A DNA stretch of 64,000 nucleotides, from the sequence record PV191315.1. One strand, 5' to 3'. Under the pieces are notes generated by a model that was not told the origin of the DNA, made no database searches, and saw only the letters and a list, made by a program, of their open reading frames with translations. Position 1 is the stretch's first letter. The number at the start of each line of letters is the position of its first letter. Of the stretch, positions 12,038-25,108 are shown piece by piece. Origin of the DNA: Escherichia phage vB_EcoM-P3322. The position numbers and the translations under genes are program-made.

Positions 12038-13864
12038 ATGAAAGATTTGTACCAAGATGTTTTTTCTTTTTTAGATCGCACTTCAGAAACATACACTAGA
12101 GAGAATGCAAACAAACCTTCCCACCTCGTTAACACGCATAGGGATCTCTTGGCGGGGATTTTAAGCAAACATATGGCAATGACACAGATACTGCCAAAAA
12201 ACTTGTCAGAATGGCATACAGAAGGTTTTGGACATATTCACGACTTGGATTATCTGCTCTCTCCTCTTACAAACTGTTGTCTTGTTAATTATCAAGATAT
12301 GTTAGAAAATGGTTTTAAGATCGGTGCTGCACAGATAGAAAAACCAAAATCTATTGGAGTAGCTACCACAGTGCTAACTCAAATCATCCAAGCTGTAGCA
12401 TCGAGCCAGTATGGTGGACAGACTTGTGCGCATATTGACGAGGGATTAAAACAATACGTAGAAAAAAGCTACAACAAAATCTTTAATAATCTCAGCAAAA
12501 ATTATCGTGGTCCTAATACAGAGGACTTAGAGAAAAGGGCGATGGAAGTGGTGGACAGTCTTGTTTATGACGCAATGCAAACACTTCTGTATCAAGTTAA
12601 TACCTTGATGAGTGTGAATGGTCAATCACCATTCATCACTATCAGCCTCGGCTTGGACACCTCTGTTTTTGGACGAATGATCACTAAGAACTATTTAAAG
12701 GTTCATACAGGAGGTCTTGGGAAGGATCGCGTGACCCCAGTATTCCCGAAAGTCGTGTTCTTCCTGAAAGACGGGGTGAATATGAAACCGGGTGACCCGA
12801 ATTACGATCTCAAGCAACTGGCAATGGAATGTTGTGCAGAAAGGATTTACCCTGATTTCATCTCTGTTCCACTGAACATGGAAGTCACAGGATCTTCAGA
12901 TGGCAAGGTTACAAGCATGGGTTGCAGAAGCTTCCTTTCTCACTATGCCACCGAACAAGGAGAAAAATACGATGGACGATTCAACCTTGGAGTAGTTTCT
13001 ATCAACTTACCTCTGATCGCTGCGGAAGCGAGAAGTAAAGGAGAATCTTTCACCGATCTTCTTAATAAACATATGGAGATAGCCTACGATGCTCACATGC
13101 TACGTGTAAACCGTATCAGACATACCAAAGCATCTGAAAACCCTATTCTTTTCATGGAAGGGGCTTTAGCTCGTTTAAATGCCAACGATGAAATTGGTGT
13201 TTTGTTTGAAGGTGGTTATGCTTCTATTAGTATTGGTTATGTAGGTCTTGCCGAAGCTTTGGAAATCCTTTATCCAGAAGAAAAAGATAAAAAGGAACTT
13301 GGTAAAAACATTCTGCAACATATGAAAGATGTGTGTGCTGTGTTTAAAGAACGATCTAATTTGGCGTTTAGTCTCTATGGAACTCCAGCAGAATCTTTGT
13401 GCTATAAGTTTGCAACAGCTTTAAATGAAAAATACCCAGGTTTGGTAGAAAGAGACTATCTTACTAACTCTTTTCATCAACCTGTGTGGTTGGTAACAAA
13501 CCCTTTTGAAAAATGGGATTATGAAGCAGGTTTTGCACAGATTAGTAATGGTGGTAACATAAGTTATGTCGAAACACCAAACTTAAAGAATAACTTAGAA
13601 GCTTTGGAAACTTTAGTAGACTACGCTTATGAACATATTCACTATTTTGGTATTAATCAGCCCGTGGATCAATGCTTTAAGTGTGGTTTTCATGGGGAAT
13701 TTAAGGCAACGGCTAAAGGGTTTGAGTGTCCTGATTGTGGCAACCATGAAGAAGAAACTATTTCTGTAGTTAGACGTGTATCAGGGTATCTTTCTGCCCC
13801 TAATTCACGGCCTTATAACAAAGGTAAAATGCAGGAAGTTTTGCAAAGGGAGAAACATTTTTGA
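12038..13864 (+). CDS. nrdD: anaerobic ribonucleoside-triphosphate reductase (class III)
   Basis: 608 aa; C-terminal zinc ribbon CFKCGFHGEF...CPDCGNHEE followed by glycyl-radical-type RVSGYLS; next gene is a radical-SAM activase. Confidence 0.8.
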   Translation: MKDLYQDVFSFLDRTSETYTRENANKPSHLVNTHRDLLAGILSKHMAMTQILPKNLSEWHTEGFGHIHDLDYLLSPLTNCCLVNYQDMLENGFKIGAAQIEKPKSIGVATTVLTQIIQAVASSQYGGQTCAHIDEGLKQYVEKSYNKIFNNLSKNYRGPNTEDLEKRAMEVVDSLVYDAMQTLLYQVNTLMSVNGQSPFITISLGLDTSVFGRMITKNYLKVHTGGLGKDRVTPVFPKVVFFLKDGVNMKPGDPNYDLKQLAMECCAERIYPDFISVPLNMEVTGSSDGKVTSMGCRSFLSHYATEQGEKYDGRFNLGVVSINLPLIAAEARSKGESFTDLLNKHMEIAYDAHMLRVNRIRHTKASENPILFMEGALARLNANDEIGVLFEGGYASISIGYVGLAEALEILYPEEKDKKELGKNILQHMKDVCAVFKERSNLAFSLYGTPAESLCYKFATALNEKYPGLVERDYLTNSFHQPVWLVTNPFEKWDYEAGFAQISNGGNISYVETPNLKNNLEALETLVDYAYEHIHYFGINQPVDQCFKCGFHGEFKATAKGFECPDCGNHEEETISVVRRVSGYLSAPNSRPYNKGKMQEVLQREKHF

Positions 13865-14551: not shown

Positions 14552-15157
14552 ATGCAACATAGTGTAGTAGTCAACATGCCGAATAGTGGGGATAAATCTT
14601 TTGGTGTCCCTGCTAAAAAAGTGTGGAAAGCCCATTTTCATCTTACTTTATCTAATGTTAGTTCTGAAGAGTTGATGAAAGCAGCTAAGATTATTGGTGC
14701 CAAATGCACAACAATTGATTTACATCGGGATACAAAGTCTCAACGTGATCGTATGTTAACAAAGTATCAAAGCGATCTCGACACTACTTTAATGTTGCAG
14801 TGTGTAGAAAAACTTGAGAATGCAGGTTTCAATGTTGTTCGTTACAAACTGGAACGAATGTTTAAACATGTTGCCTGTGTTCTTTTCATGGATCTAAGTA
14901 AAGAAAATTACGGAGAAGTTCACATTAAGACTTCAGCAAGTGATCCCGAAGTAGAAACAAACTTCTTCCGTATTTCTTCTAATGCTGAAGAAGTTGATTA
15001 CCGATTTTATAATGCTCGCTTATATTCCGCAGAAGATAAGTTGCGTTTCAATGAAGCGTATGATATGCTCTTGAACAGTGGGATACAGATAAAAGGCTAC
15101 CACATAGAACAAGTGGTAGTGGACAGTAATCTTAACTTAGACGCATGGTGGGCTTAA
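14552..15157 (+). CDS. hypothetical protein
   Basis: Track ORF 201 aa; SD GAGGAG; no recognisable motif. Confidence 0.55.
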   Translation: MQHSVVVNMPNSGDKSFGVPAKKVWKAHFHLTLSNVSSEELMKAAKIIGAKCTTIDLHRDTKSQRDRMLTKYQSDLDTTLMLQCVEKLENAGFNVVRYKLERMFKHVACVLFMDLSKENYGEVHIKTSASDPEVETNFFRISSNAEEVDYRFYNARLYSAEDKLRFNEAYDMLLNSGIQIKGYHIEQVVVDSNLNLDAWWA

Positions 15158-15158
15158 T

Positions 15159-15815
15159 ATGACTATTAAACATATCTCTTTTGATGTATGGAACACACTG
15201 ATCACAGCAAACTCCAATTACGCAGACATGCGAGCCTGGACTATCGCAAAATATGGAGATATTACGGAAGTGGAAGCAAGAGCAGCTTATAAAAAGATCA
15301 AAAAGGAACTGGATAATGCAGCACTTCAAGGCAAAGCCGAGTGTGCAGCATATGCTTGGGAAAGACTTGGTTCTGAACTTGGGATAACGCCTTGGAAGTC
15401 TGCAAAGCTTCGTTTCGAGTGTGAACAGTGGTTCCTTAAGTTTCCACCACACGTAGCCGTGGATCTGCCGATGTACTTGCTGTATCTTTCGGGGCGTTAT
15501 GATTTGAGTATTAAGAGCAATACCAACTTCATATCAGGGGATATCCTGCGTCGTGCTTGTAAGTTTGATAGTTGGAATTGTTTTGAGTTCACCCATTTCT
15601 CGGATGAAGCTTTACTTTGTAAACCAGATCCGCGATTCTTTGCTCGCACGCTCACGTATTCTCCGATCCCTCTGTTAGGGCACGAAGTGTTGCACGTAGG
15701 CGATAGTGAAGAATATGATGGAAAATGTGTTGACTTAGGATTTAACTTCTGTCATATTAAGAACCCTAACGACTTACTAGAGAAACTTAAAAGAGGAGAA
15801 ATTGTAAATGCGTAA
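15159..15815 (+). CDS. HAD-superfamily phosphatase-like hydrolase
   Basis: Motif I-like ISFDVWNTLI near N-terminus and motif IV-like HVGDSEEYD. Confidence 0.5.
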   Translation: MTIKHISFDVWNTLITANSNYADMRAWTIAKYGDITEVEARAAYKKIKKELDNAALQGKAECAAYAWERLGSELGITPWKSAKLRFECEQWFLKFPPHVAVDLPMYLLYLSGRYDLSIKSNTNFISGDILRRACKFDSWNCFEFTHFSDEALLCKPDPRFFARTLTYSPIPLLGHEVLHVGDSEEYDGKCVDLGFNFCHIKNPNDLLEKLKRGEIVNA

Positions 15816-16635
15816 TCAAACTCAAATTTTTGCAAATAAATTTGATGACCTGGAAACTGCTACTTTTGATATCCAAGATTATTCAAAATTGAAATTTGGT
15901 AGTAACCAAGCTGCGCGTCGTATGGGTAAAGAATTGGCACTTCAGTTTTTTGCTCAAGTGGCAATGAAACATATTGGGGAACAATTTGTTATCATTCCTT
16001 CTCCTTATAACCATGTGCATAATGCTGCAACAATGATGACAGATCATTTTATTAATTACTTTAATATGTTGCAATCACAATATGATCAAGGTCGTTCAGC
16101 AGAACTGGACATTATTCATCGTAAAGTTAGCTATATCAACGATTATGGTTTCTTGGATAAAGCTAGTCGTAAGAAACTTATTGATGGGGATACATTCTAC
16201 TGCAACAAAGAATTCTGGGGTGATAAGAAGCTTGTATTCATTGATGATGTAAATATCACTGGAACGCATGAAGACAAACTGATTGAGATCCTTGATGAAA
16301 ATCAAGTTAAAAATGATGTTTACTTCCTGTATTTTGCAAAATACGAAGGTAATCAAGCAGATACCGAAGCTAAACTGAATTTTAACTACATTAATACACC
16401 AGAAGCGTTTGTTAAAATGATTAATGAAGAACGTGATGCACAGTGTCTTGTTCGTCCTATTAAGTATCTTATGGGCCAAAATCATGAAGACTTCAAAATC
16501 ATTCTTAGCCAATTGCCACATTACTATGTAGAGCAACTTTTCTTTGGATGCTTGGGAGAAGGTTACAACCGAATTTCAAAGTATGCTGAAAACTTTGAAT
16601 TCTTGGATCGTTACACAAAACAACACATTCTGTAA
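15808..16635 (+). CDS. phosphoribosyltransferase-like protein
   Basis: PRPP-binding-loop-like KLVFIDDVNITGTHED; overlaps HAD gene by 8 nt. Confidence 0.45.
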   Translation: MRNQTQIFANKFDDLETATFDIQDYSKLKFGSNQAARRMGKELALQFFAQVAMKHIGEQFVIIPSPYNHVHNAATMMTDHFINYFNMLQSQYDQGRSAELDIIHRKVSYINDYGFLDKASRKKLIDGDTFYCNKEFWGDKKLVFIDDVNITGTHEDKLIEILDENQVKNDVYFLYFAKYEGNQADTEAKLNFNYINTPEAFVKMINEERDAQCLVRPIKYLMGQNHEDFKIILSQLPHYYVEQLFFGCLGEGYNRISKYAENFEFLDRYTKQHIL

Positions 16636-16648
16636 TAAGGAGCTAAAA

Positions 16649-17122
16649 ATGCTTAAAATTAAAACAGGTAATCTTATTGATGCCGCTAAAGCAGGTGAAG
16701 TAACTGTTATTGCTCATTGTTGCAACTGTATGTGTAATATGGGGGCAGGTATTGCCCCACAAATCAAACGAGCATTTCCTTACGCATATGCAGCAGACTT
16801 AGACACAATGGCTGGTGATCAAAGTAAACTAGGTTGTTTTAGTTTAGGGGTGCCAGACGAACAATCCGACCCTTTGGTATATAATCTATACGGGCAATAC
16901 CGTTACGGATACAATGCTAAAGGTCGTCAGTTGGACTATGATGCACTTTACGATGCACTAATAGCTATGGCTAACGATTTGCTTCTCCGTGACCAAAAAT
17001 GTAAGATCGGCTTACCTATGATTGGCGCTGGATATGCTGGAGGTAATTGGGCTATCATCCAAGTGATGATTGAAGAAACTTTAGTAAAAACAGGTCACGA
17101 TGTGACTATTTATAAACTTTAA
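16649..17122 (+). CDS. macro-domain protein (ADP-ribose binding/processing)
   Basis: Track ORF 16544..17122, start moved to ATG 16649 after AAGGAG; VIAHCCNCMCNMGAGIAPQIKRAFP aligns with the macro-domain Gly-rich loop, second loop LPMIGAGYAGG. Confidence 0.5.
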   Translation: MLKIKTGNLIDAAKAGEVTVIAHCCNCMCNMGAGIAPQIKRAFPYAYAADLDTMAGDQSKLGCFSLGVPDEQSDPLVYNLYGQYRYGYNAKGRQLDYDALYDALIAMANDLLLRDQKCKIGLPMIGAGYAGGNWAIIQVMIEETLVKTGHDVTIYKL

Positions 17123-17134
17123 GAGGAGATTAGT

Positions 17135-17356
17135 ATGGGTGTTTTTGCAGGTATTGTTGCAGTGGTAAGCTTTTTTGTTATTGCTTTTATGCTTAGTTTG
17201 ATTCCAGCTTGGTTACTGTTGCTGGCTTACAACTATGTTGCTGAAGTTATGGGTCATGCAGATATCACTGTCCCAGTAACCTTCTGGACCGTGGTTTGTG
17301 TTTCGTTTATTCTGGCTGTATTACGAGGAATCTTTTCCTCTCATTCAACAAAATAA
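17135..17356 (+). CDS. small membrane protein (2 TM)
   Basis: Track ORF 73 aa; hydrophobic helices; SD AGGAGA. Confidence 0.5.
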   Translation: MGVFAGIVAVVSFFVIAFMLSLIPAWLLLLAYNYVAEVMGHADITVPVTFWTVVCVSFILAVLRGIFSSHSTK

Positions 17357-17359
17357 GTG

Positions 17360-17387
17360 TTGACATAGTTCTTAAAAAGAGTAAGAT
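17360..17387 (+). promoter_or_regulatory. candidate sigma70-type promoter (TTGACA-N16-TAAGAT) preceded by motif AAAATAAGTG
   Basis: Consensus hexamers in the 80-nt gap before the TerC-like gene. Confidence 0.4.
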
Positions 17388-17399
17388 GTATCACATGAA

Positions 17400-17418
17400 G
17401 CGGGGAATAGTTCCCCGC
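17400..17418 (+). promoter_or_regulatory. 5' leader stem-loop GCGGGGAA-TAG-TTCCCCGC
   Basis: Perfect 8-bp GC-rich stem between promoter and RBS, no T-run after it. Confidence 0.3.
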
Positions 17419-17435
17419 AAAGAGAGGAGAAAAGA

Positions 17436-18410
17436 ATGCAACTTGGTTTCCCAATTATTGATGTAGTTGTTTTAGTTGGTATTTTAGCATTGTCTATTGG
17501 TATTGATTTCTTTGGTCACAAAGAAAATAAAGAAATTTCATTCAAATCCGCAGTTGGTTGGTCGATCTTTTGGATTGGTGTATCATTAGCTTATTATGGT
17601 TTTGTATACTTCCAACATGGTGCCGATTTTGCTAACTTGTTTTTAAGTGGATATGTGTTGGAAAAATCTTTGTCGGTAGATAACTTGGTAGTATTTGTAG
17701 CAGTATTCGCAAGTTTTGGTATTAAAAGCACACACTTGCAGCACAAGATTCTACTTTGGGGTATTGCAGGTGCGATTGTCTTCCGAGGTGTGTTTGTAGC
17801 AGTAGGCACTTACTTGTTAAGTTTGGGCTGGTATGTTAATATCTTCTTCGGTGCGGTCATCCTTTTCTGTGCAGCTAAAATGGTATTTGCTGGAGATAAT
17901 GACGCAGAAGTTGATTACTCTAAACACTGGGCTACCCGTATTGTTCGTAAACTGTTCCCTGTATCTAATAAAATGGATGGGGAGAAGTTCTTCACAATCG
18001 AAAATGGTGTTCGTGTAGCAACTCCAGCTTTGGTTTGCGTATTCGTGATGGAAATGGTGGATGTAATCTTTGCAGTAGATTCGGTTCCAGCGGTGATCGC
18101 AGTGACACAAGAACCCCTGCTTGTATTCTCTTCGATGTTATGTGCAATCTTAGGTCTACGTGCTCTGTTCTTTGTTCTTAGTGTCGCACTGAAGTATCTG
18201 GTTCACTTGGAGAAAGCAGTTATTGTGGTTCTGGTGTTTGTAGGCGTTAAACTGATGTATCACCCGTTTGCAGAAACATTGCATGAGAAAATGAGTTTCC
18301 TGCCAGCACATATTGATCCAACTATTAGTATGTATATCGTGCTTGGTACTTTGGCCCTTGGTGTTATTGCAAGCTTTATCTTCCCTGAAAAAGAAGAAGC
18401 TACTGTTTAA
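17436..18410 (+). CDS. TerC-family integral membrane protein
   Basis: 324 aa polytopic membrane protein; SLSVDNLVVFVAVF motif and paired acidic/His TM segments fit TerC/Alx pattern. Confidence 0.55.
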   Translation: MQLGFPIIDVVVLVGILALSIGIDFFGHKENKEISFKSAVGWSIFWIGVSLAYYGFVYFQHGADFANLFLSGYVLEKSLSVDNLVVFVAVFASFGIKSTHLQHKILLWGIAGAIVFRGVFVAVGTYLLSLGWYVNIFFGAVILFCAAKMVFAGDNDAEVDYSKHWATRIVRKLFPVSNKMDGEKFFTIENGVRVATPALVCVFVMEMVDVIFAVDSVPAVIAVTQEPLLVFSSMLCAILGLRALFFVLSVALKYLVHLEKAVIVVLVFVGVKLMYHPFAETLHEKMSFLPAHIDPTISMYIVLGTLALGVIASFIFPEKEEATV

Positions 18411-20035: not shown

Positions 20036-20626
20036 ATGCATACCGAGAGAGACTTGCAACTCTTGTGGTGGGAAGTGATGCAGGAAATAAAAGAAGATTT
20101 TCCTGCTTACTACAACATGTTACGTGAAGCAGGATATAAAGCTTGTGTTAGAAACAAAGTGAATAACTCTTTCGGTTGGTGCAACTACCGAGATAAAATT
20201 GTTGTTGTAAATTGGCACTTGCATAAGAACTCCACAAGAGATATGATCGTGGATACAATGAAGCACGAAATTGCTCATGCTATTGATGGTTGTATGGGTA
20301 AGTTTAGTAGGCACGGTGCTCATTGGCAAAAACTGGCAGCAGAATTAGGGGCTAATCCTAAAGCCACTTCCAAAGAGCCGTTGAACCACGAATATAAATA
20401 TGTTCTTGTTCTGGTAGATAGGTTTGCGACAAGATGTGTTAGAGGTTATAATCGTAAACCTAATCGCATGTACCCAGGTAAGCAACCTAATATGTGGTTG
20501 AAATCAGATAAAGAAGGGACCGAAGGAAAATTATGGTTGTATAAATGGGACGATTGGGTTAAAGTAGCTAAAGAGTACGGTGTTTCACCATATATAAGAG
20601 ATGCAGAAGAGGAGAATGAAGAATGA
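20036..20626 (+). CDS. SprT-like zinc metalloprotease-domain protein
   Basis: HExxH in TMKHEIAHAI with downstream HGAHW and upstream GWCNYRDKIVVVNWHL, matching SprT-like layout. Confidence 0.5.
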   Translation: MHTERDLQLLWWEVMQEIKEDFPAYYNMLREAGYKACVRNKVNNSFGWCNYRDKIVVVNWHLHKNSTRDMIVDTMKHEIAHAIDGCMGKFSRHGAHWQKLAAELGANPKATSKEPLNHEYKYVLVLVDRFATRCVRGYNRKPNRMYPGKQPNMWLKSDKEGTEGKLWLYKWDDWVKVAKEYGVSPYIRDAEEENEE

Positions 20627-21735
20627 CAAGTCCATTTTTAAAAGCAGCTACTGGTGGTCAGAAGAAGCCTGAAATGAGCGTATTTGCTGCAACAACAGAT
20701 GCAAGTAAATCTGTATTCGCTCCAAGCGTGTTAGATGCCAGTCCTGTTTATGCACCAGCGGCACCGCAAGAAGTTCCAGTTTTGCCTTCTATGACCCGAC
20801 AAGAGATCGAAGAGATTGGGGCAGAGGCAGGAACAACCTTGCGTTCCTTGAATGCCGAGGTATTAAAACATCAACGTAGTAATCAAGGCGATCAGATGAG
20901 TGAACGACTCACAGCTTTGATTAAACAGGCAAAACAACTTGATCCAAACTCTATTAAACAAAGCAAGGGTATTACTAAACTCATTAAAAAAGTTATGGGT
21001 ATGAAAGAAGATCTGTTTGGGGAGTTTGATAATGTTAATAACCGTATTGAAGAGTTGGTAAAGAACCTTCAAATGGATATTCGCAAAGAAGAAGATTCCT
21101 TGGTATATCTTGAAAAGCTACATCAAGCTATTGGACAATATGCTGCAAGTTTGAACCGAGATATGCAGCTTCTAACAGCAACCTATGAAAAAGAAGAACA
21201 AGCTTTGGCTGCTCTTCCAGAAGATGCAGTAGAACAGCGACAAGTGATCCGAGATACTTTGGATCTTCTGGAGATTCGTATTGCAGATTTAAAAGCATTG
21301 CGCCTACTGTGTGTCCAAATGGGACCGCGTGTACAAGGTATGCAAAAAGTTTCTGCAAGCTTAATGCGATCTGCGCGTAACATAGTAAATAATGTTATTC
21401 CTGCTTACTCTGCTAACTTCTCAATGTATATCGAGAGCTTACGTCAAATGAAAGCAGCAGAGACGCAGAATAACGTTCTTGATGAATTTAACCTGGCAAT
21501 TAAACTGGGTAGCGATCTTGCCACACAGAATCAGATCGAAGCAGCAGCACTGGCTAACCGTCAAGTGTTGGATATTGAAACTCTGCGTCACGATCAGGAA
21601 AACTTGGTTAAGATGTTGGAAGAAACTAACCGCATCAATACGGAAGCCCGTGCTGCTCGTGTTGATTATATTAATGAAGTTCAATCTCTGGAAGACGGGA
21701 TGGTAGCTGCTGTGAAACGAGGGCTTGGTAAATGA
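20623..21735 (+). CDS. TelA-like (toxic anion resistance family) coiled-coil protein, tentative
   Basis: 370 aa helical, Gln/Leu-rich with heptad-like stretches; call by size, composition and Ter-gene context only. Confidence 0.35.
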   Translation: MTSPFLKAATGGQKKPEMSVFAATTDASKSVFAPSVLDASPVYAPAAPQEVPVLPSMTRQEIEEIGAEAGTTLRSLNAEVLKHQRSNQGDQMSERLTALIKQAKQLDPNSIKQSKGITKLIKKVMGMKEDLFGEFDNVNNRIEELVKNLQMDIRKEEDSLVYLEKLHQAIGQYAASLNRDMQLLTATYEKEEQALAALPEDAVEQRQVIRDTLDLLEIRIADLKALRLLCVQMGPRVQGMQKVSASLMRSARNIVNNVIPAYSANFSMYIESLRQMKAAETQNNVLDEFNLAIKLGSDLATQNQIEAAALANRQVLDIETLRHDQENLVKMLEETNRINTEARAARVDYINEVQSLEDGMVAAVKRGLGK

Positions 21736-21929
21736 GAATCCGTATCTATATAATTGATGAAGACATTGGTGTCCGTTATGATGACGAAAAACGATTCGCA
21801 CCGATGGGAGGTATATATCCCCCAAGTGTTCTAGCAGTTTGTCGTGATTGTTATATTTATGAAGGTTGTCGTAACTTCCGTAAATTCGAACTCCTTGCAG
21901 ATATTGACTTCAATGAGGAGGAGGAGTAA
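21732..21929 (+). CDS. hypothetical protein
   Basis: Track ORF 65 aa; ATGA overlap. Confidence 0.45.
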   Translation: MRIRIYIIDEDIGVRYDDEKRFAPMGGIYPPSVLAVCRDCYIYEGCRNFRKFELLADIDFNEEEE

Positions 21930-22099
21930 TGAAAATATTACGAGTGAATATTGAAACTGCTTGGTGTGGATGCAATGAGGTTGTGGATATCGAAATTGAA
22001 GATGATATGTCTCAAGAGGATATAGAAGATCTTGCGCACGAAACCTTTCAGGATTATTGTAATTACGGGTTCCATATTTTAGAGGAGGAAGAAGATGTT
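21929..22099 (+). CDS. small acidic hypothetical protein (56 aa)
   Basis: Not in track; TAATG overlap upstream, SD GAGGAGGAG, stop overlaps next start; MKILRVNIETAWCGCNEVVDIEIEDD... Confidence 0.4.
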
Positions 22100-22298
22100 T
22101 AACTACGATAACGATCCTAATATTATCCAGTTAACCCGACAAGAACTGATCACAATCATTGAAGATGCTTTTATTGATGGCTGGAATACACAAGATAATG
22201 ACTGGGGTGGACCCGAAGCTTTTCTGGAACATCATAAAACTTATGGAGACTCTTGTGAAACCACTGTAGCTCTTGATAATCTGAAGGAGGGTTTGTAA
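22095..22298 (+). CDS. hypothetical protein
   Basis: Track ORF 67 aa; SD GAGGAGG. Confidence 0.5.
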   Translation: MFNYDNDPNIIQLTRQELITIIEDAFIDGWNTQDNDWGGPEAFLEHHKTYGDSCETTVALDNLKEGL

Positions 22299-22861
22299 TG
22301 GGTTGTTTTAGCTTTTTGTGCAAAGAATCGGGCAAAGCTGCCCTTTCTACTTCTTTCGACGGATCACCTTGCTACCTCTTTCTTTTGAAGGACGGTGTTG
22401 TTATTGAAGAGATGTATGGCAACTATGATAGTTATGGTTGTGTTTTCTCTGGAAAGGAGGATGAAAACGGCGTTCGTGAACGGTTCGAATGGGCTATGGA
22501 TTGGGGTAAGGTTTGTGATTTGATGCATTCCTCAAATCCAAGGGACGGTATCGCTATGGTGCTGGAAGAGTACTTTACAGGTGAAATCCCTACAGAACAA
22601 TCTGACGGAGATCCTAACCAAGGTTGGGGTGATGGTGAAGAAGATCCAGATTGTTTTTTCAGCACAGAAAAGAATAAGTTTAAACGTGTTGACAACCCTT
22701 ATCACAAAGTGCATAATACTCTCATTGAAACAGAAGATGACAAGATGGAAATTGAAGAAGATGATCCTCTTGTAACACTTCCTATAAGTGAGTTACAAAA
22801 GATCACTAAGGAAGCTTACGATTTGGGCTTCAAAATTGGTAGAGGAGGTATGCGTGTTTAG
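22298..22861 (+). CDS. hypothetical protein
   Basis: Track ORF 187 aa. Confidence 0.5.
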   Translation: MGCFSFLCKESGKAALSTSFDGSPCYLFLLKDGVVIEEMYGNYDSYGCVFSGKEDENGVRERFEWAMDWGKVCDLMHSSNPRDGIAMVLEEYFTGEIPTEQSDGDPNQGWGDGEEDPDCFFSTEKNKFKRVDNPYHKVHNTLIETEDDKMEIEEDDPLVTLPISELQKITKEAYDLGFKIGRGGMRV

Positions 22862-23132
22862 ATTCAATATTCAAGAAGAAAAAAGTCAGGATTTACCTAT
22901 TGCTTTCGAAGATCTTGACGTAGGGGCCACATTCATGTATTATGATGCCTATGAAGACGCAGGGTTGGATACCTACCGTAACTTGGTGTTCATTAAAAAT
23001 TCCACAAACAGTGCGATTTGTATTAATGGATCACTAGCACAACGAGGCTATACTCATTGCATCCCACCAGATACAAATATGGTGGAAGTAGATTTAGAAG
23101 TTACCAATATTACACTTAAGAAGGAGAAATAA
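22854..23132 (+). CDS. small protein, paralog A (of 24154..24423)
   Basis: Track ORF 22788..23132; start moved to GTG 22854 after AGAGGAGG; shares DLDVG(A/D)TF and EV(D/E)L.VT.ITLK with paralog B. Confidence 0.45.
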   Translation: MFRFNIQEEKSQDLPIAFEDLDVGATFMYYDAYEDAGLDTYRNLVFIKNSTNSAICINGSLAQRGYTHCIPPDTNMVEVDLEVTNITLKKEK

Positions 23133-23133
23133 T

Positions 23134-23928
23134 ATGTCCGAGAAAATCAGCCTGAAAAAACGTCAAGAAAACCTTGCTTTCTCTCTGAAAAAGAATAAGA
23201 ACCTGAACGAAGGTAAGATTGTTCTTCGTGTAGCATGTGCTCTAGATATTTCTGGTAGTATGCATGGTCTATATTCTAGTGGGGTAGTGAGTGATTTTGT
23301 AGGTAAACTGCTTCCTTTTGGTATGCTGTTCGACGATAATCAACAAATTGATATGTGGGCCTTCAATACGAGTTCCCAAGAGCTTACTCCAGCAACAGCA
23401 GATGTTTACGATGACTATGTTGGTAAATGTATGCGTAATGTTCGTATCGGAGGTGGAACAAATTACGCCCCTGTAATGGCGGATATCTACGATGAGTATT
23501 TTGGCACTGTTACTAAATATATTACCACTAAACAAGTGGTACAAGAGGAGGCTCCAAAGAAAGGTTTCTTTAATCGTCTACTTGGTAAAACTGAAACAGT
23601 ATCTGTAGAGCGTGAAAAGGTCGTAGCTGTATCTGAACCAGGTGCTGACGTTACCCCTGGTGTTGTATTCTTCCAAACGGATGGTGAGAATGGTGATCCT
23701 AGTGCTGTTCGTCGTCTTATCGAAGAGAATAAGAATAAACCTATTTATTGGTTCATGGTTGGCGTTGGTAATGAGAAGTTTGGCTTCCTGAAAGAACTGG
23801 CAAATGCTTATGATAATGTTGGTTTTATTGGTATTAAAGATTTAGACTTGACAGATTCAGAGCTTTATGACAAACTCTTATCTGAAGAGTTCGGAGAGTG
23901 GGTTGTTAAAGTAGGTGCTAAAAAATGA
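23134..23928 (+). CDS. von Willebrand factor A domain protein, TerY-like
   Basis: MIDAS-type LDISGSMHG after hydrophobic strand VLRVACA; N-terminus EKISLKK echoes TerD N-terminal motif. Confidence 0.5.
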   Translation: MSEKISLKKRQENLAFSLKKNKNLNEGKIVLRVACALDISGSMHGLYSSGVVSDFVGKLLPFGMLFDDNQQIDMWAFNTSSQELTPATADVYDDYVGKCMRNVRIGGGTNYAPVMADIYDEYFGTVTKYITTKQVVQEEAPKKGFFNRLLGKTETVSVEREKVVAVSEPGADVTPGVVFFQTDGENGDPSAVRRLIEENKNKPIYWFMVGVGNEKFGFLKELANAYDNVGFIGIKDLDLTDSELYDKLLSEEFGEWVVKVGAKK

Positions 23929-24173
23929 TCGACGAGCTTGCCTCTCAAGTCATAGAAAATTATTGGCGCGAGAGAGAAGCTTTCATTATGCGCAGTCTCA
24001 AAGAGTATTTCATTGGGACTGTGCGAATGGAAGATATTGTAAGTAGAGTAGAGATTCATGTATGGCCTGATTATGAAGAATGGGTTGACAAAGAAAATGA
24101 AAATGCTATAATTCTTCGTATATACAAACCGGAGATAACATTAGGAGGAAGAAGTGTTAAACTTCGAAATTGA
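23925..24173 (+). CDS. hypothetical protein
   Basis: Track ORF 82 aa; ATGA overlap. Confidence 0.45.
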   Translation: MIDELASQVIENYWREREAFIMRSLKEYFIGTVRMEDIVSRVEIHVWPDYEEWVDKENENAIILRIYKPEITLGGRSVKLRN

Positions 24174-24423
24174 TGAGCAAAAAGTAAATAAACGATGCCT
24201 TACCATTAAAGATTTGGATGTAGGAGATACTTTCGTCTATGAAAATGCATTTGACGAAAATGGTTTAGACCTTAGTGAAATCATTGTTTATTTAAAAGTA
24301 GATGATGGGGAAAACGATTATTCTGCTGTAGAACTAAACCATCATGCACAATTAGTATCAATCCAAAACACATCTAAGCTTTTGGAAGTAGAATTGACTG
24401 TAACTGGTATTACACTTAAATAA
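24154..24423 (+). CDS. small protein, paralog B (of 22854..23132)
   Basis: Track ORF 89 aa; GTG start after AGGAGG; paralog motifs as above. Confidence 0.45.
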   Translation: MLNFEIDEQKVNKRCLTIKDLDVGDTFVYENAFDENGLDLSEIIVYLKVDDGENDYSAVELNHHAQLVSIQNTSKLLEVELTVTGITLK

Positions 24424-24438
24424 TAGAGGAGACAAAAG

Positions 24439-25041
24439 ATGACTGATAAAATTTCCCTGAAAAAAGGCTCTAGCGAAAAAATTTCCCTGAAGAAAGTTGC
24501 TCCGGCTCTGAAAGAACTGCGCCTGGAATTCTCTTGGAAATCTGATTCTAAACTGGATCTGGATGTAAGTGCACTGGTTTGTCGTCATAATGCCGCTGGC
24601 AATCCTGAAATGTTGTCTGCACGTCATCTGGTTTGCTATGCTAACAAGTTTGATCCTGAACGTTCTACCTTCGCTGGTGACGATGTTCGTGATGGAACTG
24701 GTAGCATGGAGCAGATTGATATTACTCTGGCTAAAATCTCTCCTGATGCACAAGAGATTGCCTTTGTTCTGACCATTGATGATGATACAGGTCTGAAACG
24801 TTTTGGTCATGCTTCTGAAGGTATGCTTAAAATCTTCGACTCCGAGCGCAATGTGGAAATTCTGGATTTTGACTTCCTGGCTCCTGAAGTAGCTGGCAAC
24901 ACAATCTGCCACGTGGCTTCCTTGGTTCGTGAAGATGGGGAATGGAAGCTGAAAGCATATGGTGTAGGTAAAGCTGGTCTGGATATTTGTGATGTGGTGA
25001 TGGCCTTCGGTGGTAAAAAAGAATGGTATGAATGTCCATAA
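24439..25041 (+). CDS. TerD-domain protein
   Basis: N-terminal KISLKKG..EKISLKK, central Ca-binding-type AGDDVRDGTGS, C-terminal EWKLKAYGVGKAGL all fit TerD; strong host-like codon bias. Confidence 0.65.
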   Translation: MTDKISLKKGSSEKISLKKVAPALKELRLEFSWKSDSKLDLDVSALVCRHNAAGNPEMLSARHLVCYANKFDPERSTFAGDDVRDGTGSMEQIDITLAKISPDAQEIAFVLTIDDDTGLKRFGHASEGMLKIFDSERNVEILDFDFLAPEVAGNTICHVASLVREDGEWKLKAYGVGKAGLDICDVVMAFGGKKEWYECP

Positions 25042-25059
25042 TAATTAACAAATGATTTT

Positions 25060-25079
25060 GAGGGGGAGAAATCCCCCTC
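25060..25079 (+). terminator. hairpin terminator candidate (GAGGGGGA-GAAA-TCCCCCTC)
   Basis: 8-bp GC stem with tetraloop right after TerD gene; weak T-tract; same stem recurs at 42912-42930. Confidence 0.35.
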
Positions 25080-25108
25080 TTGCAATAAAGCCTCTATCGT
25101 GTTATACT
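25080..25108 (+). promoter_or_regulatory. candidate sigma70-type promoter (TTGCAA-N17-TATACT)
   Basis: Near-consensus hexamers 30 nt upstream of endolysin-like gene. Confidence 0.45.

Follow-up and report, generated by a model that had tools for sequence, protein, structure and literature searches.

Small acidic proteins encoded beside the vWA and TerD genes of a Phapecoctavirus-type phage: a duplicated family of possible Ter partners

The Ter cluster of Escherichia phage vB_EcoM-P3322 (record PV191315.1, of which a stretch of 64,000 nucleotides, here called the window, was analysed) encodes two paralogous small acidic proteins, termed A and B, one immediately upstream of a vWA gene and the other immediately upstream of a TerD gene. 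Ter systems, with components such as TerC, TerD, TelA and TerF-type vWA proteins, occur widely, in bacteria and on plasmids as well as in large phages. The family to which A and B belong may supply the phage vWA-TerD module with an accessory subunit that binds protein and is specific to one lineage, a tentative reading that draws on gene context and a generic protein-binding fold and to which we give somewhat less than an even chance. The two genes are:

22854-23132, + strand: small protein A, 92 amino acids (aa), isoelectric point (pI) 4.4, PHROG 11278 (phrog_11278, 4e-51), 'pre-vWA' clade
24154-24423, + strand: small protein B, 89 aa, pI 4.3, PHROG 11278 (phrog_11278, 7e-45), 'pre-TerD' clade

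The original prediction described these open reading frames (ORFs) of about 90 aa as paralogous, and closer comparison bears this out. A full-length BLASTP alignment of A with B shows 34% identity (E=2e-14), and their score of 51.6 bits is significant when set against 300 shuffles of B (mean 7.5, maximum 20). The motifs they were said to share are present in both, as DLDVG(A/D)TF and EV(D/E)L(E/T)VT(N/G)ITLK, and each matches the PHROG 11278 profile end to end (A at 4.2e-51, positions 1-92 of 92; B at 7e-45, positions 1-89 of 92). On sequence evidence, A and B are true paralogues; the family profile found no third copy in the 64-kb window. Both genes start, as predicted, with GTG behind a strong Shine-Dalgarno sequence, which is GGAGG 5 nt ahead of the start in A and AGGAGG in B. 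The same ORFs are called in the GenBank annotations of near-identical phages, and the chosen starts are supported by an ATG at the homologous position in diverged relatives. Ratios of nonsynonymous to synonymous substitution (Nei-Gojobori) are 0.19 for A against phi92 and 0.28 against its counterpart on the metagenomic contig L011, 0.17 for B, and 0.26 for a distant family pair (L007 vs L008), compared with 0.19 for the neighbouring vWA gene and 0.12 for TerD. Values of 0.17-0.28 indicate real genes under purifying selection, about as constrained as the vWA gene. The proteins are strongly acidic (15-18 Asp plus Glu vs 7-8 Lys plus Arg) and have no hydrophobic segments. The GC content of the B gene (0.315) is the lowest of the cluster, in sharp contrast with the TerD gene next door (0.439, vs 0.393 for the window).

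Searches of other protein families returned little. In Pfam, at E <= 0.1, the sole match of either protein was that of B to DUF5006, which is sub-threshold (E 0.046, 13.3 bits vs a cut-off of 34.1 bits); neither matched NCBIfam, and a search of PDB sequences gave nothing with E below 0.09. Across these three collections, A and B matched no FeoA, KOW or Tudor family, and no homology to known chaperone families was detected. The TerD profile (PF02342) was likewise unmatched at E <= 0.1, and this, together with the different fold described below, led us to reject the idea that the proteins are pieces of TerD or what is left of a TerF N-terminus. PADLOC returned no match for A, B, vWA, TerD, TelA or the two neighbouring ORFs of 82 and 187 aa. 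Among the papers that could be searched, none was found to discuss the small proteins. The genes that surround A and B are:

22298-22861, + strand: ORF of 187 aa, very acidic and Cys-containing, phrog_14928, no Pfam match
23134-23928, + strand: vWA protein of the TerF C-terminal type, 264 aa, PF10138 (vWA-TerF-like) 1.6e-37
23925-24173, + strand: ORF of 82 aa between vWA and B, phrog_22387, unrelated to the small family
24439-25041, + strand: TerD-domain protein, 200 aa, PF02342 3.2e-28

A is thus followed by a vWA gene and B by TerD, as had been proposed, but the vWA protein belongs to the TerF C-terminal type (PF10138) and not to the TerY type. The gene order also needs a correction, in that B does not directly follow vWA: the 82-aa ORF intervenes and overlaps the start of B by 20 nt.

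In relatives, the family gene directly adjoins the vWA and/or the TerD gene in every context examined, down to 22-30% identity, and this agrees with the expectation that the association would recur in independent phage contexts. The arrangement itself varies. In phi92 (Justusliebigvirus) and Klebsiella phage 05F01, a single copy lies directly before vWA, and TerD comes straight after vWA with no copy of its own, whereas in distant metagenomic relatives (L006, L007, L008-L010 and L016; 22-30% identity) the single copy lies between vWA and TerD; L015 shows a small gene followed by TerD at the contig end. In L006, an SPFH/Band_7 protein is encoded directly 3' of TerD (L006:2095-2574), a further protein of membrane-scaffold type in the module. 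Copies occur at both positions in phiWec179 (L004), like the window, and a 56-kb Phapecoctavirus-like metagenomic contig (L011) has three, a tandem pair ahead of vWA and a single one ahead of TerD:

L011, 5728-6000: copy 1, before vWA, 96% identical to the phiWec179 pre-vWA copy
L011, 6001-6279: copy 2, before vWA, closest to A of the window (68%)
L011, 7301-7582: copy 3, before TerD

The L011 copies suggest a family prone to tandem duplication or recombinational shuffling. A neighbour-joining tree sets apart one clade of pre-vWA copies, one of Phapecoctavirus pre-TerD copies and the metagenomic 'between' clade, although rooting is unreliable with such short sequences. The usual state is one copy, and the doubled small-then-Ter pattern is lineage-specific, peculiar to Phapecoctavirus types. 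The suggestion of a dedicated partner for each Ter protein does not survive as a conserved design, given the single copy of phi92 and 05F01; nor does the repeated pair, given the single gene between vWA and TerD in the distant metagenomic relatives, the three copies of L011 and the lack of any copy in other phage Ter clusters.

The family is narrowly distributed. PHROG 11278 members occur in 126 records of the phage collection, essentially all of Stephanstirmvirinae types. Homologues of vWA are spread more widely, over 219 records from a much larger range of phage groups, with phages of Pseudomonas, Caulobacter, Rhizobium and Brevundimonas among them. When 1.84 billion representative proteins were searched with a HMMER profile, no more than about 15 clusters of standalone homologues emerged, 87-93 aa in length, and no family member surfaced from a bacterial Ter operon. 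A search of IMG/VR with a single family protein (P0035) found nothing. In Klebsiella phage FBKp34, gp129 (L012:4391-4648), an 85-aa protein encoded two genes upstream of vWA, has a similar pattern, 'FEVGDVF ... YLFVKEVGINAVYL'; its hhalign comparison with the family is marginal (P=0.0075 over 48 columns) and it was unmatched in hmmsearch, so that it may be a very diverged family member. Two other candidates were set aside: FBKp34 gp130, considered as a remote homologue, is unrelated, and phiPsa374 gp014, an 84-aa protein encoded directly 5' of vWA, is unrelated by eye and unmatched in hmmsearch.

The expression signals of the two copies differ in kind. The stop of the 187-aa ORF overlaps the start of A by 8 nt, and this overlap is expected to couple the two genes translationally. 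All pre-vWA copies end in ...(K/E)EK-stop, and the codons at this end (AGGAGAAATAA) double as the Shine-Dalgarno sequence of vWA, whose ATG follows after a 1-nt gap. A ribosome-binding site for vWA inside the final codons of A is the classic arrangement for translational coupling. B is preceded by a promoter and TerD is followed by a hairpin:

24085-24112, + strand: sigma-70 promoter with extended -10, TTGACA-16-TGcTATAAT, 12/12 consensus match
25060-25079, + strand: GC-rich hairpin just 3' of TerD, 8-bp stem and GAAA loop, -17.2 kcal/mol, z = -2.9

The promoter lies inside the 82-aa ORF, 42 nt upstream of the B start codon, and points at B and TerD. It is the sole perfect sigma-70 consensus in the window, against a chance expectation of 0.12 (at least one arose in 11 of 100 shuffles). 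In phiWec179 (L004:3935-3962) and L011 (7235-7262), both hexamers are kept in place even though the flanks differ. B is separated from the TerD ATG by a 15-nt spacer with GAGGAG. The hairpin has a weak T-tract and was not called by the terminator scan; it probably marks the end of a B-TerD transcription unit. Given the promoter and the hairpin, B and TerD are probably transcribed by host RNA polymerase as one short unit at a high level.

Structure prediction with AlphaFold2 depended on the alignment supplied: seven sequences gave an unusable model, with a predicted local distance difference test score (pLDDT) of 47, and 17 diverse sequences gave a pLDDT of 83.6 and a predicted template modelling score of 0.71. 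The latter model comprises a short strand, a 3-10 turn, a strand (residues 26-29), a helix (residues 30-36) and then four strands, so that A and B are predicted to fold as an SH3-like small beta-barrel with one helix. Strand number (five to six), length (about 60-90 residues) and superposition on known SH3-like, KOW or Tudor domains place the model in this fold class. Neither a TerD sandwich nor an Ig-like sandwich is seen in the predicted fold. Structural matches are weak and at fold level only: Foldseek found no significant match to the model in the PDB, and in BFVD a similar barrel is seen for many small phage proteins that are uncharacterised. Two conserved segments, the N-terminal MFxF and the C-terminal V.L.V..I.L, do not form packed strands in the model of the monomer (DSSP '-'), and residues 1-4 have a pLDDT below 50; segments left free in this way might pair as strands with a partner protein or a second copy. 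The best-conserved acidic residue is the nearly invariant aspartate of the GLD motif, D39.

These observations are consistent with A and B being adaptors or modulators of the vWA(TerF-type)-TerD module in Stephanstirmvirinae-type phages. The small acidic SH3-like barrel would bind the vWA and/or the TerD protein; A would be made in a fixed ratio with vWA through translational coupling, a strong early promoter of host type would drive B together with TerD, and the pair in the window would derive from duplication of a single ancestral partner gene. Partnership is favoured by the fact that the gene switches sides of vWA and yet stays beside vWA or TerD at 22-30% identity. The vWA protein, for its part, has an intact metal ion-dependent adhesion site (MIDAS; DxSxS...T...D), with D38, S40, S42, T109 and D183 invariant in an alignment of eight phage homologues, as expected of a vWA domain built to bind a ligand protein. 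Binding by the small proteins could then affect Ter function, which for phage Ter genes is proposed to be superinfection exclusion or protection against membrane/metal stress (PMC7824862).

Several points weigh against such a partnership. The vWA and TerD genes of FBKp34, Caulobacter phage CcrSC and Pseudomonas phage phiPsa374 are accompanied by no detectable homologue, and with none found in a bacterial Ter operon either, Ter proteins evidently do not need such a partner in general. Copy number, which ranges from 1 to 3, is out of step with the number of Ter proteins. The carriers are themselves related phages and share wider flanking synteny (TelA upstream, a cell-wall hydrolase of the Hydrolase_2 family downstream), so that adjacency may partly reflect common descent. 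Finally, D39 is replaced by N or S in two family members, which weakens the idea that it is the ligand of the vWA MIDAS; as a universal ligand it has been dropped, and it is kept as a low-confidence candidate.

The main rival, somewhat unlikely in our judgement, is that the small proteins are bystanders, early phage proteins unrelated to Ter (serving host takeover or anti-defence, for example) and kept in place by inherited gene order. The order TelA ... vWA ... TerD and then Hydrolase_2, common to all carriers, fits this explanation, as do the many other tiny ORFs without assigned function that crowd the region around A and B, the Ter modules of other phages that do without the family, and the abundance in BFVD of uncharacterised small phage proteins with a similar barrel. 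Inherited order accounts less well for a gene that has moved or been duplicated around vWA (before, after or both) and still adjoins vWA or TerD in distant relatives, whereas the nearby ORFs of 82, 187 and 57-67 aa are not retained across relatives in the same way. The coupling of A to vWA and the promoter that B shares with TerD also speak against mere coexistence.

If the small proteins are partners, their role could be stronger than that of adaptors. They might be obligatory third subunits that join the separate vWA and TerD proteins non-covalently into a TerF-like unit, or that dock them on TelA/TerC at the membrane, with A and B specialised for the vWA and TerD sides; we regard this version as distinctly unlikely. 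Less probable still is a transient assembly or folding helper, or an inhibitor, of vWA or TerD, which could for instance block the MIDAS or Ca-binding sites until the membrane is reached. The same context evidence that favours an accessory subunit applies here, and the unpacked MFxF and V.L.V..I.L segments fit strand pairing with a partner; nothing sets such a helper apart from an adaptor, however, and no known chaperone family is matched.

A nucleic acid-binding regulator is very unlikely. In this role an SH3-, KOW- or Sm-like barrel would bind RNA or DNA and control the adjacent Ter genes, but the low pI (4.3-4.4) and the excess of acidic over basic residues favour protein or metal partners over nucleic acid, neither KOW nor any other family of Pfam or NCBIfam is matched (the sub-threshold DUF5006 hit of B standing alone), and the structural matches are weak and confined to fold level. 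The last candidate, a single Ig-like or cadherin-like calcium-binding domain of the He_PIG/DUF11 type, was raised by giant repeat proteins that the search of 1.84 billion proteins listed with 4-22 matching stretches (E down to 4e-26), several of them He_PIG, DUF11 or HYR Ig-like repeats, and is effectively refuted, because these scores are sums of short partial matches (16-54 positions) to heterogeneous families that include an ankyrin-repeat protein and are treated as spurious, Pfam shows no such family in A or B at E <= 0.1, and the predicted fold is an SH3-like barrel.

Some features of the neighbouring genes deserve mention. Between its MIDAS threonine and its TDG motif, the vWA protein has an insertion (alignment columns ~127-185) whose length is greatest where a small gene precedes vWA and intermediate in the 'between' group; where the family is lacking, the insertion is short or missing altogether. 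Insertion length and family carriage are only loosely correlated. A nearly identical basic peptide opens the vWA protein (MSEKISLKK..., 23134-23160) and the TerD protein (MTDKISLKKGSSEKISLKK..., 24439-24500), and the two genes that follow the acidic small proteins thus begin with the same motif. The pattern 'xSLxK' is the usual TerD-type start. The 82-aa ORF is present in L004 and L011 and absent from phi92, 05F01 and L006-L010; it is found only where Phapecoctavirus-type phages have the pre-TerD copy. It was considered as a diverged family member and as a duplicated piece of the 187-aa ORF, and both ideas were rejected, the first because hhalign against the family gave nothing and the second because BLASTP was not significant. 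The 187-aa ORF upstream of the pre-vWA copy is kept in phi92 (gp175) and L011 and missing in phiWec179.

The small genes lie within an extended Ter system, encoded on the + strand and comprising PRTase, TerC, TelA, TerF-type vWA and TerD. Between 15808 and 25041, PF03741, PF05816, PF02342, PF10138 and PF15610 all score above their cut-offs on this strand. The components upstream of those listed above are:

15159-15815, + strand: HAD-like protein, weak match
15808-16635, + strand: ComF-like phosphoribosyltransferase (PRTase), PF15610 2e-41
16544-17122, + strand: Macro domain, weak match
17436-18410, + strand: TerC membrane protein, PF03741 1e-38
20036-20626, + strand: SprT-like protein
20623-21735, + strand: TelA, PF05816 3e-33, phrog_5890

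HAD-like protein, PRTase, Macro domain and TerC make up the 'metabolite' arm of the Ter system (14552-18410, + strand), upstream of the small genes, and just 5' of this arm lies the gene for the anaerobic ribonucleotide reductase NrdD (12038-13864). By its sequence, the window comes from a Phapecoctavirus (phAPEC8-like E. coli myophage, Stephanstirmvirinae): over 20600-25100, many Phapecoctavirus genomes match it at 98.5-99.7% identity, phage TSP7_1 best of all. Campylobacter phage B15 and Klebsiella phage ZCKP1 show about 99% nucleotide identity over the same region, and an Acinetobacter phage record has a 100% identical vWA protein. A region so nearly unchanged from E. coli Phapecoctavirus or Justusliebigvirus genomes in the records concerned (MG065650.1, MG065639.1, OP562383.1 and MH252123.1, from Campylobacter-, Acinetobacter- and Klebsiella-labelled phages) suggests mislabelled hosts or contaminating phages.

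How Ter proteins assemble and act is largely conjecture, and a dedicated small partner of vWA-TerD would, if the binding is real, offer an easy entry point and could reveal which surfaces of vWA (the MIDAS) or of TerD serve partner binding. Were the proteins third subunits, they would add a new member to the set of Ter-associated components and make Ter assembly simpler to approach; as bystanders, they would amount to an ordinary duplicated phage ORF. An accessory partner would be a modest addition to a known system.

Compared with characterized barrels, A and B share no sequence similarity with FeoA, the C-terminal domain of DtxR/IdeR, KOW, Tudor or HspQ/YccV proteins. They differ from SH3-like modules in an extra helix after strand 2, and their motifs GxTF and YExxGLD are foreign to FeoA, KOW and Tudor. 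In bacterial TerF, a TerD domain is fused to a C-terminal vWA. The phage has the same two domains, but as separate genes with vWA first and, unlike bacterial TerF, with a small protein encoded beside or between them; as a matter of speculation, this protein might substitute for the covalent vWA-TerD link of TerF. Membership of A and B in PHROG 11278 is clear from the end-to-end profile match, and the entry itself carries no statement on function, fold or context. Phage-borne Ter clusters of comparable composition have been described (PMC7824862; Iyer et al. 2021, citing Anantharaman, Iyer & Aravind 2012), and Ter genes have also been noted in Klebsiella phage phiKp34 (PMC8386662). The relevant passages of these two papers give the same component set as the TerC, TelA, vWA-TerF-like, TerD and ComF-like PRTase of the window, on one strand, and leave the small barrel protein unmentioned. 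In contrast to the systems described in those passages, the clusters considered here have one to three small copies beside vWA or TerD, only in Stephanstirmvirinae-type phages. The PHROG 11278 family and phage Ter clusters were thus already known, each on its own; what is new is the link between them, the fold assignment and the duplication history.

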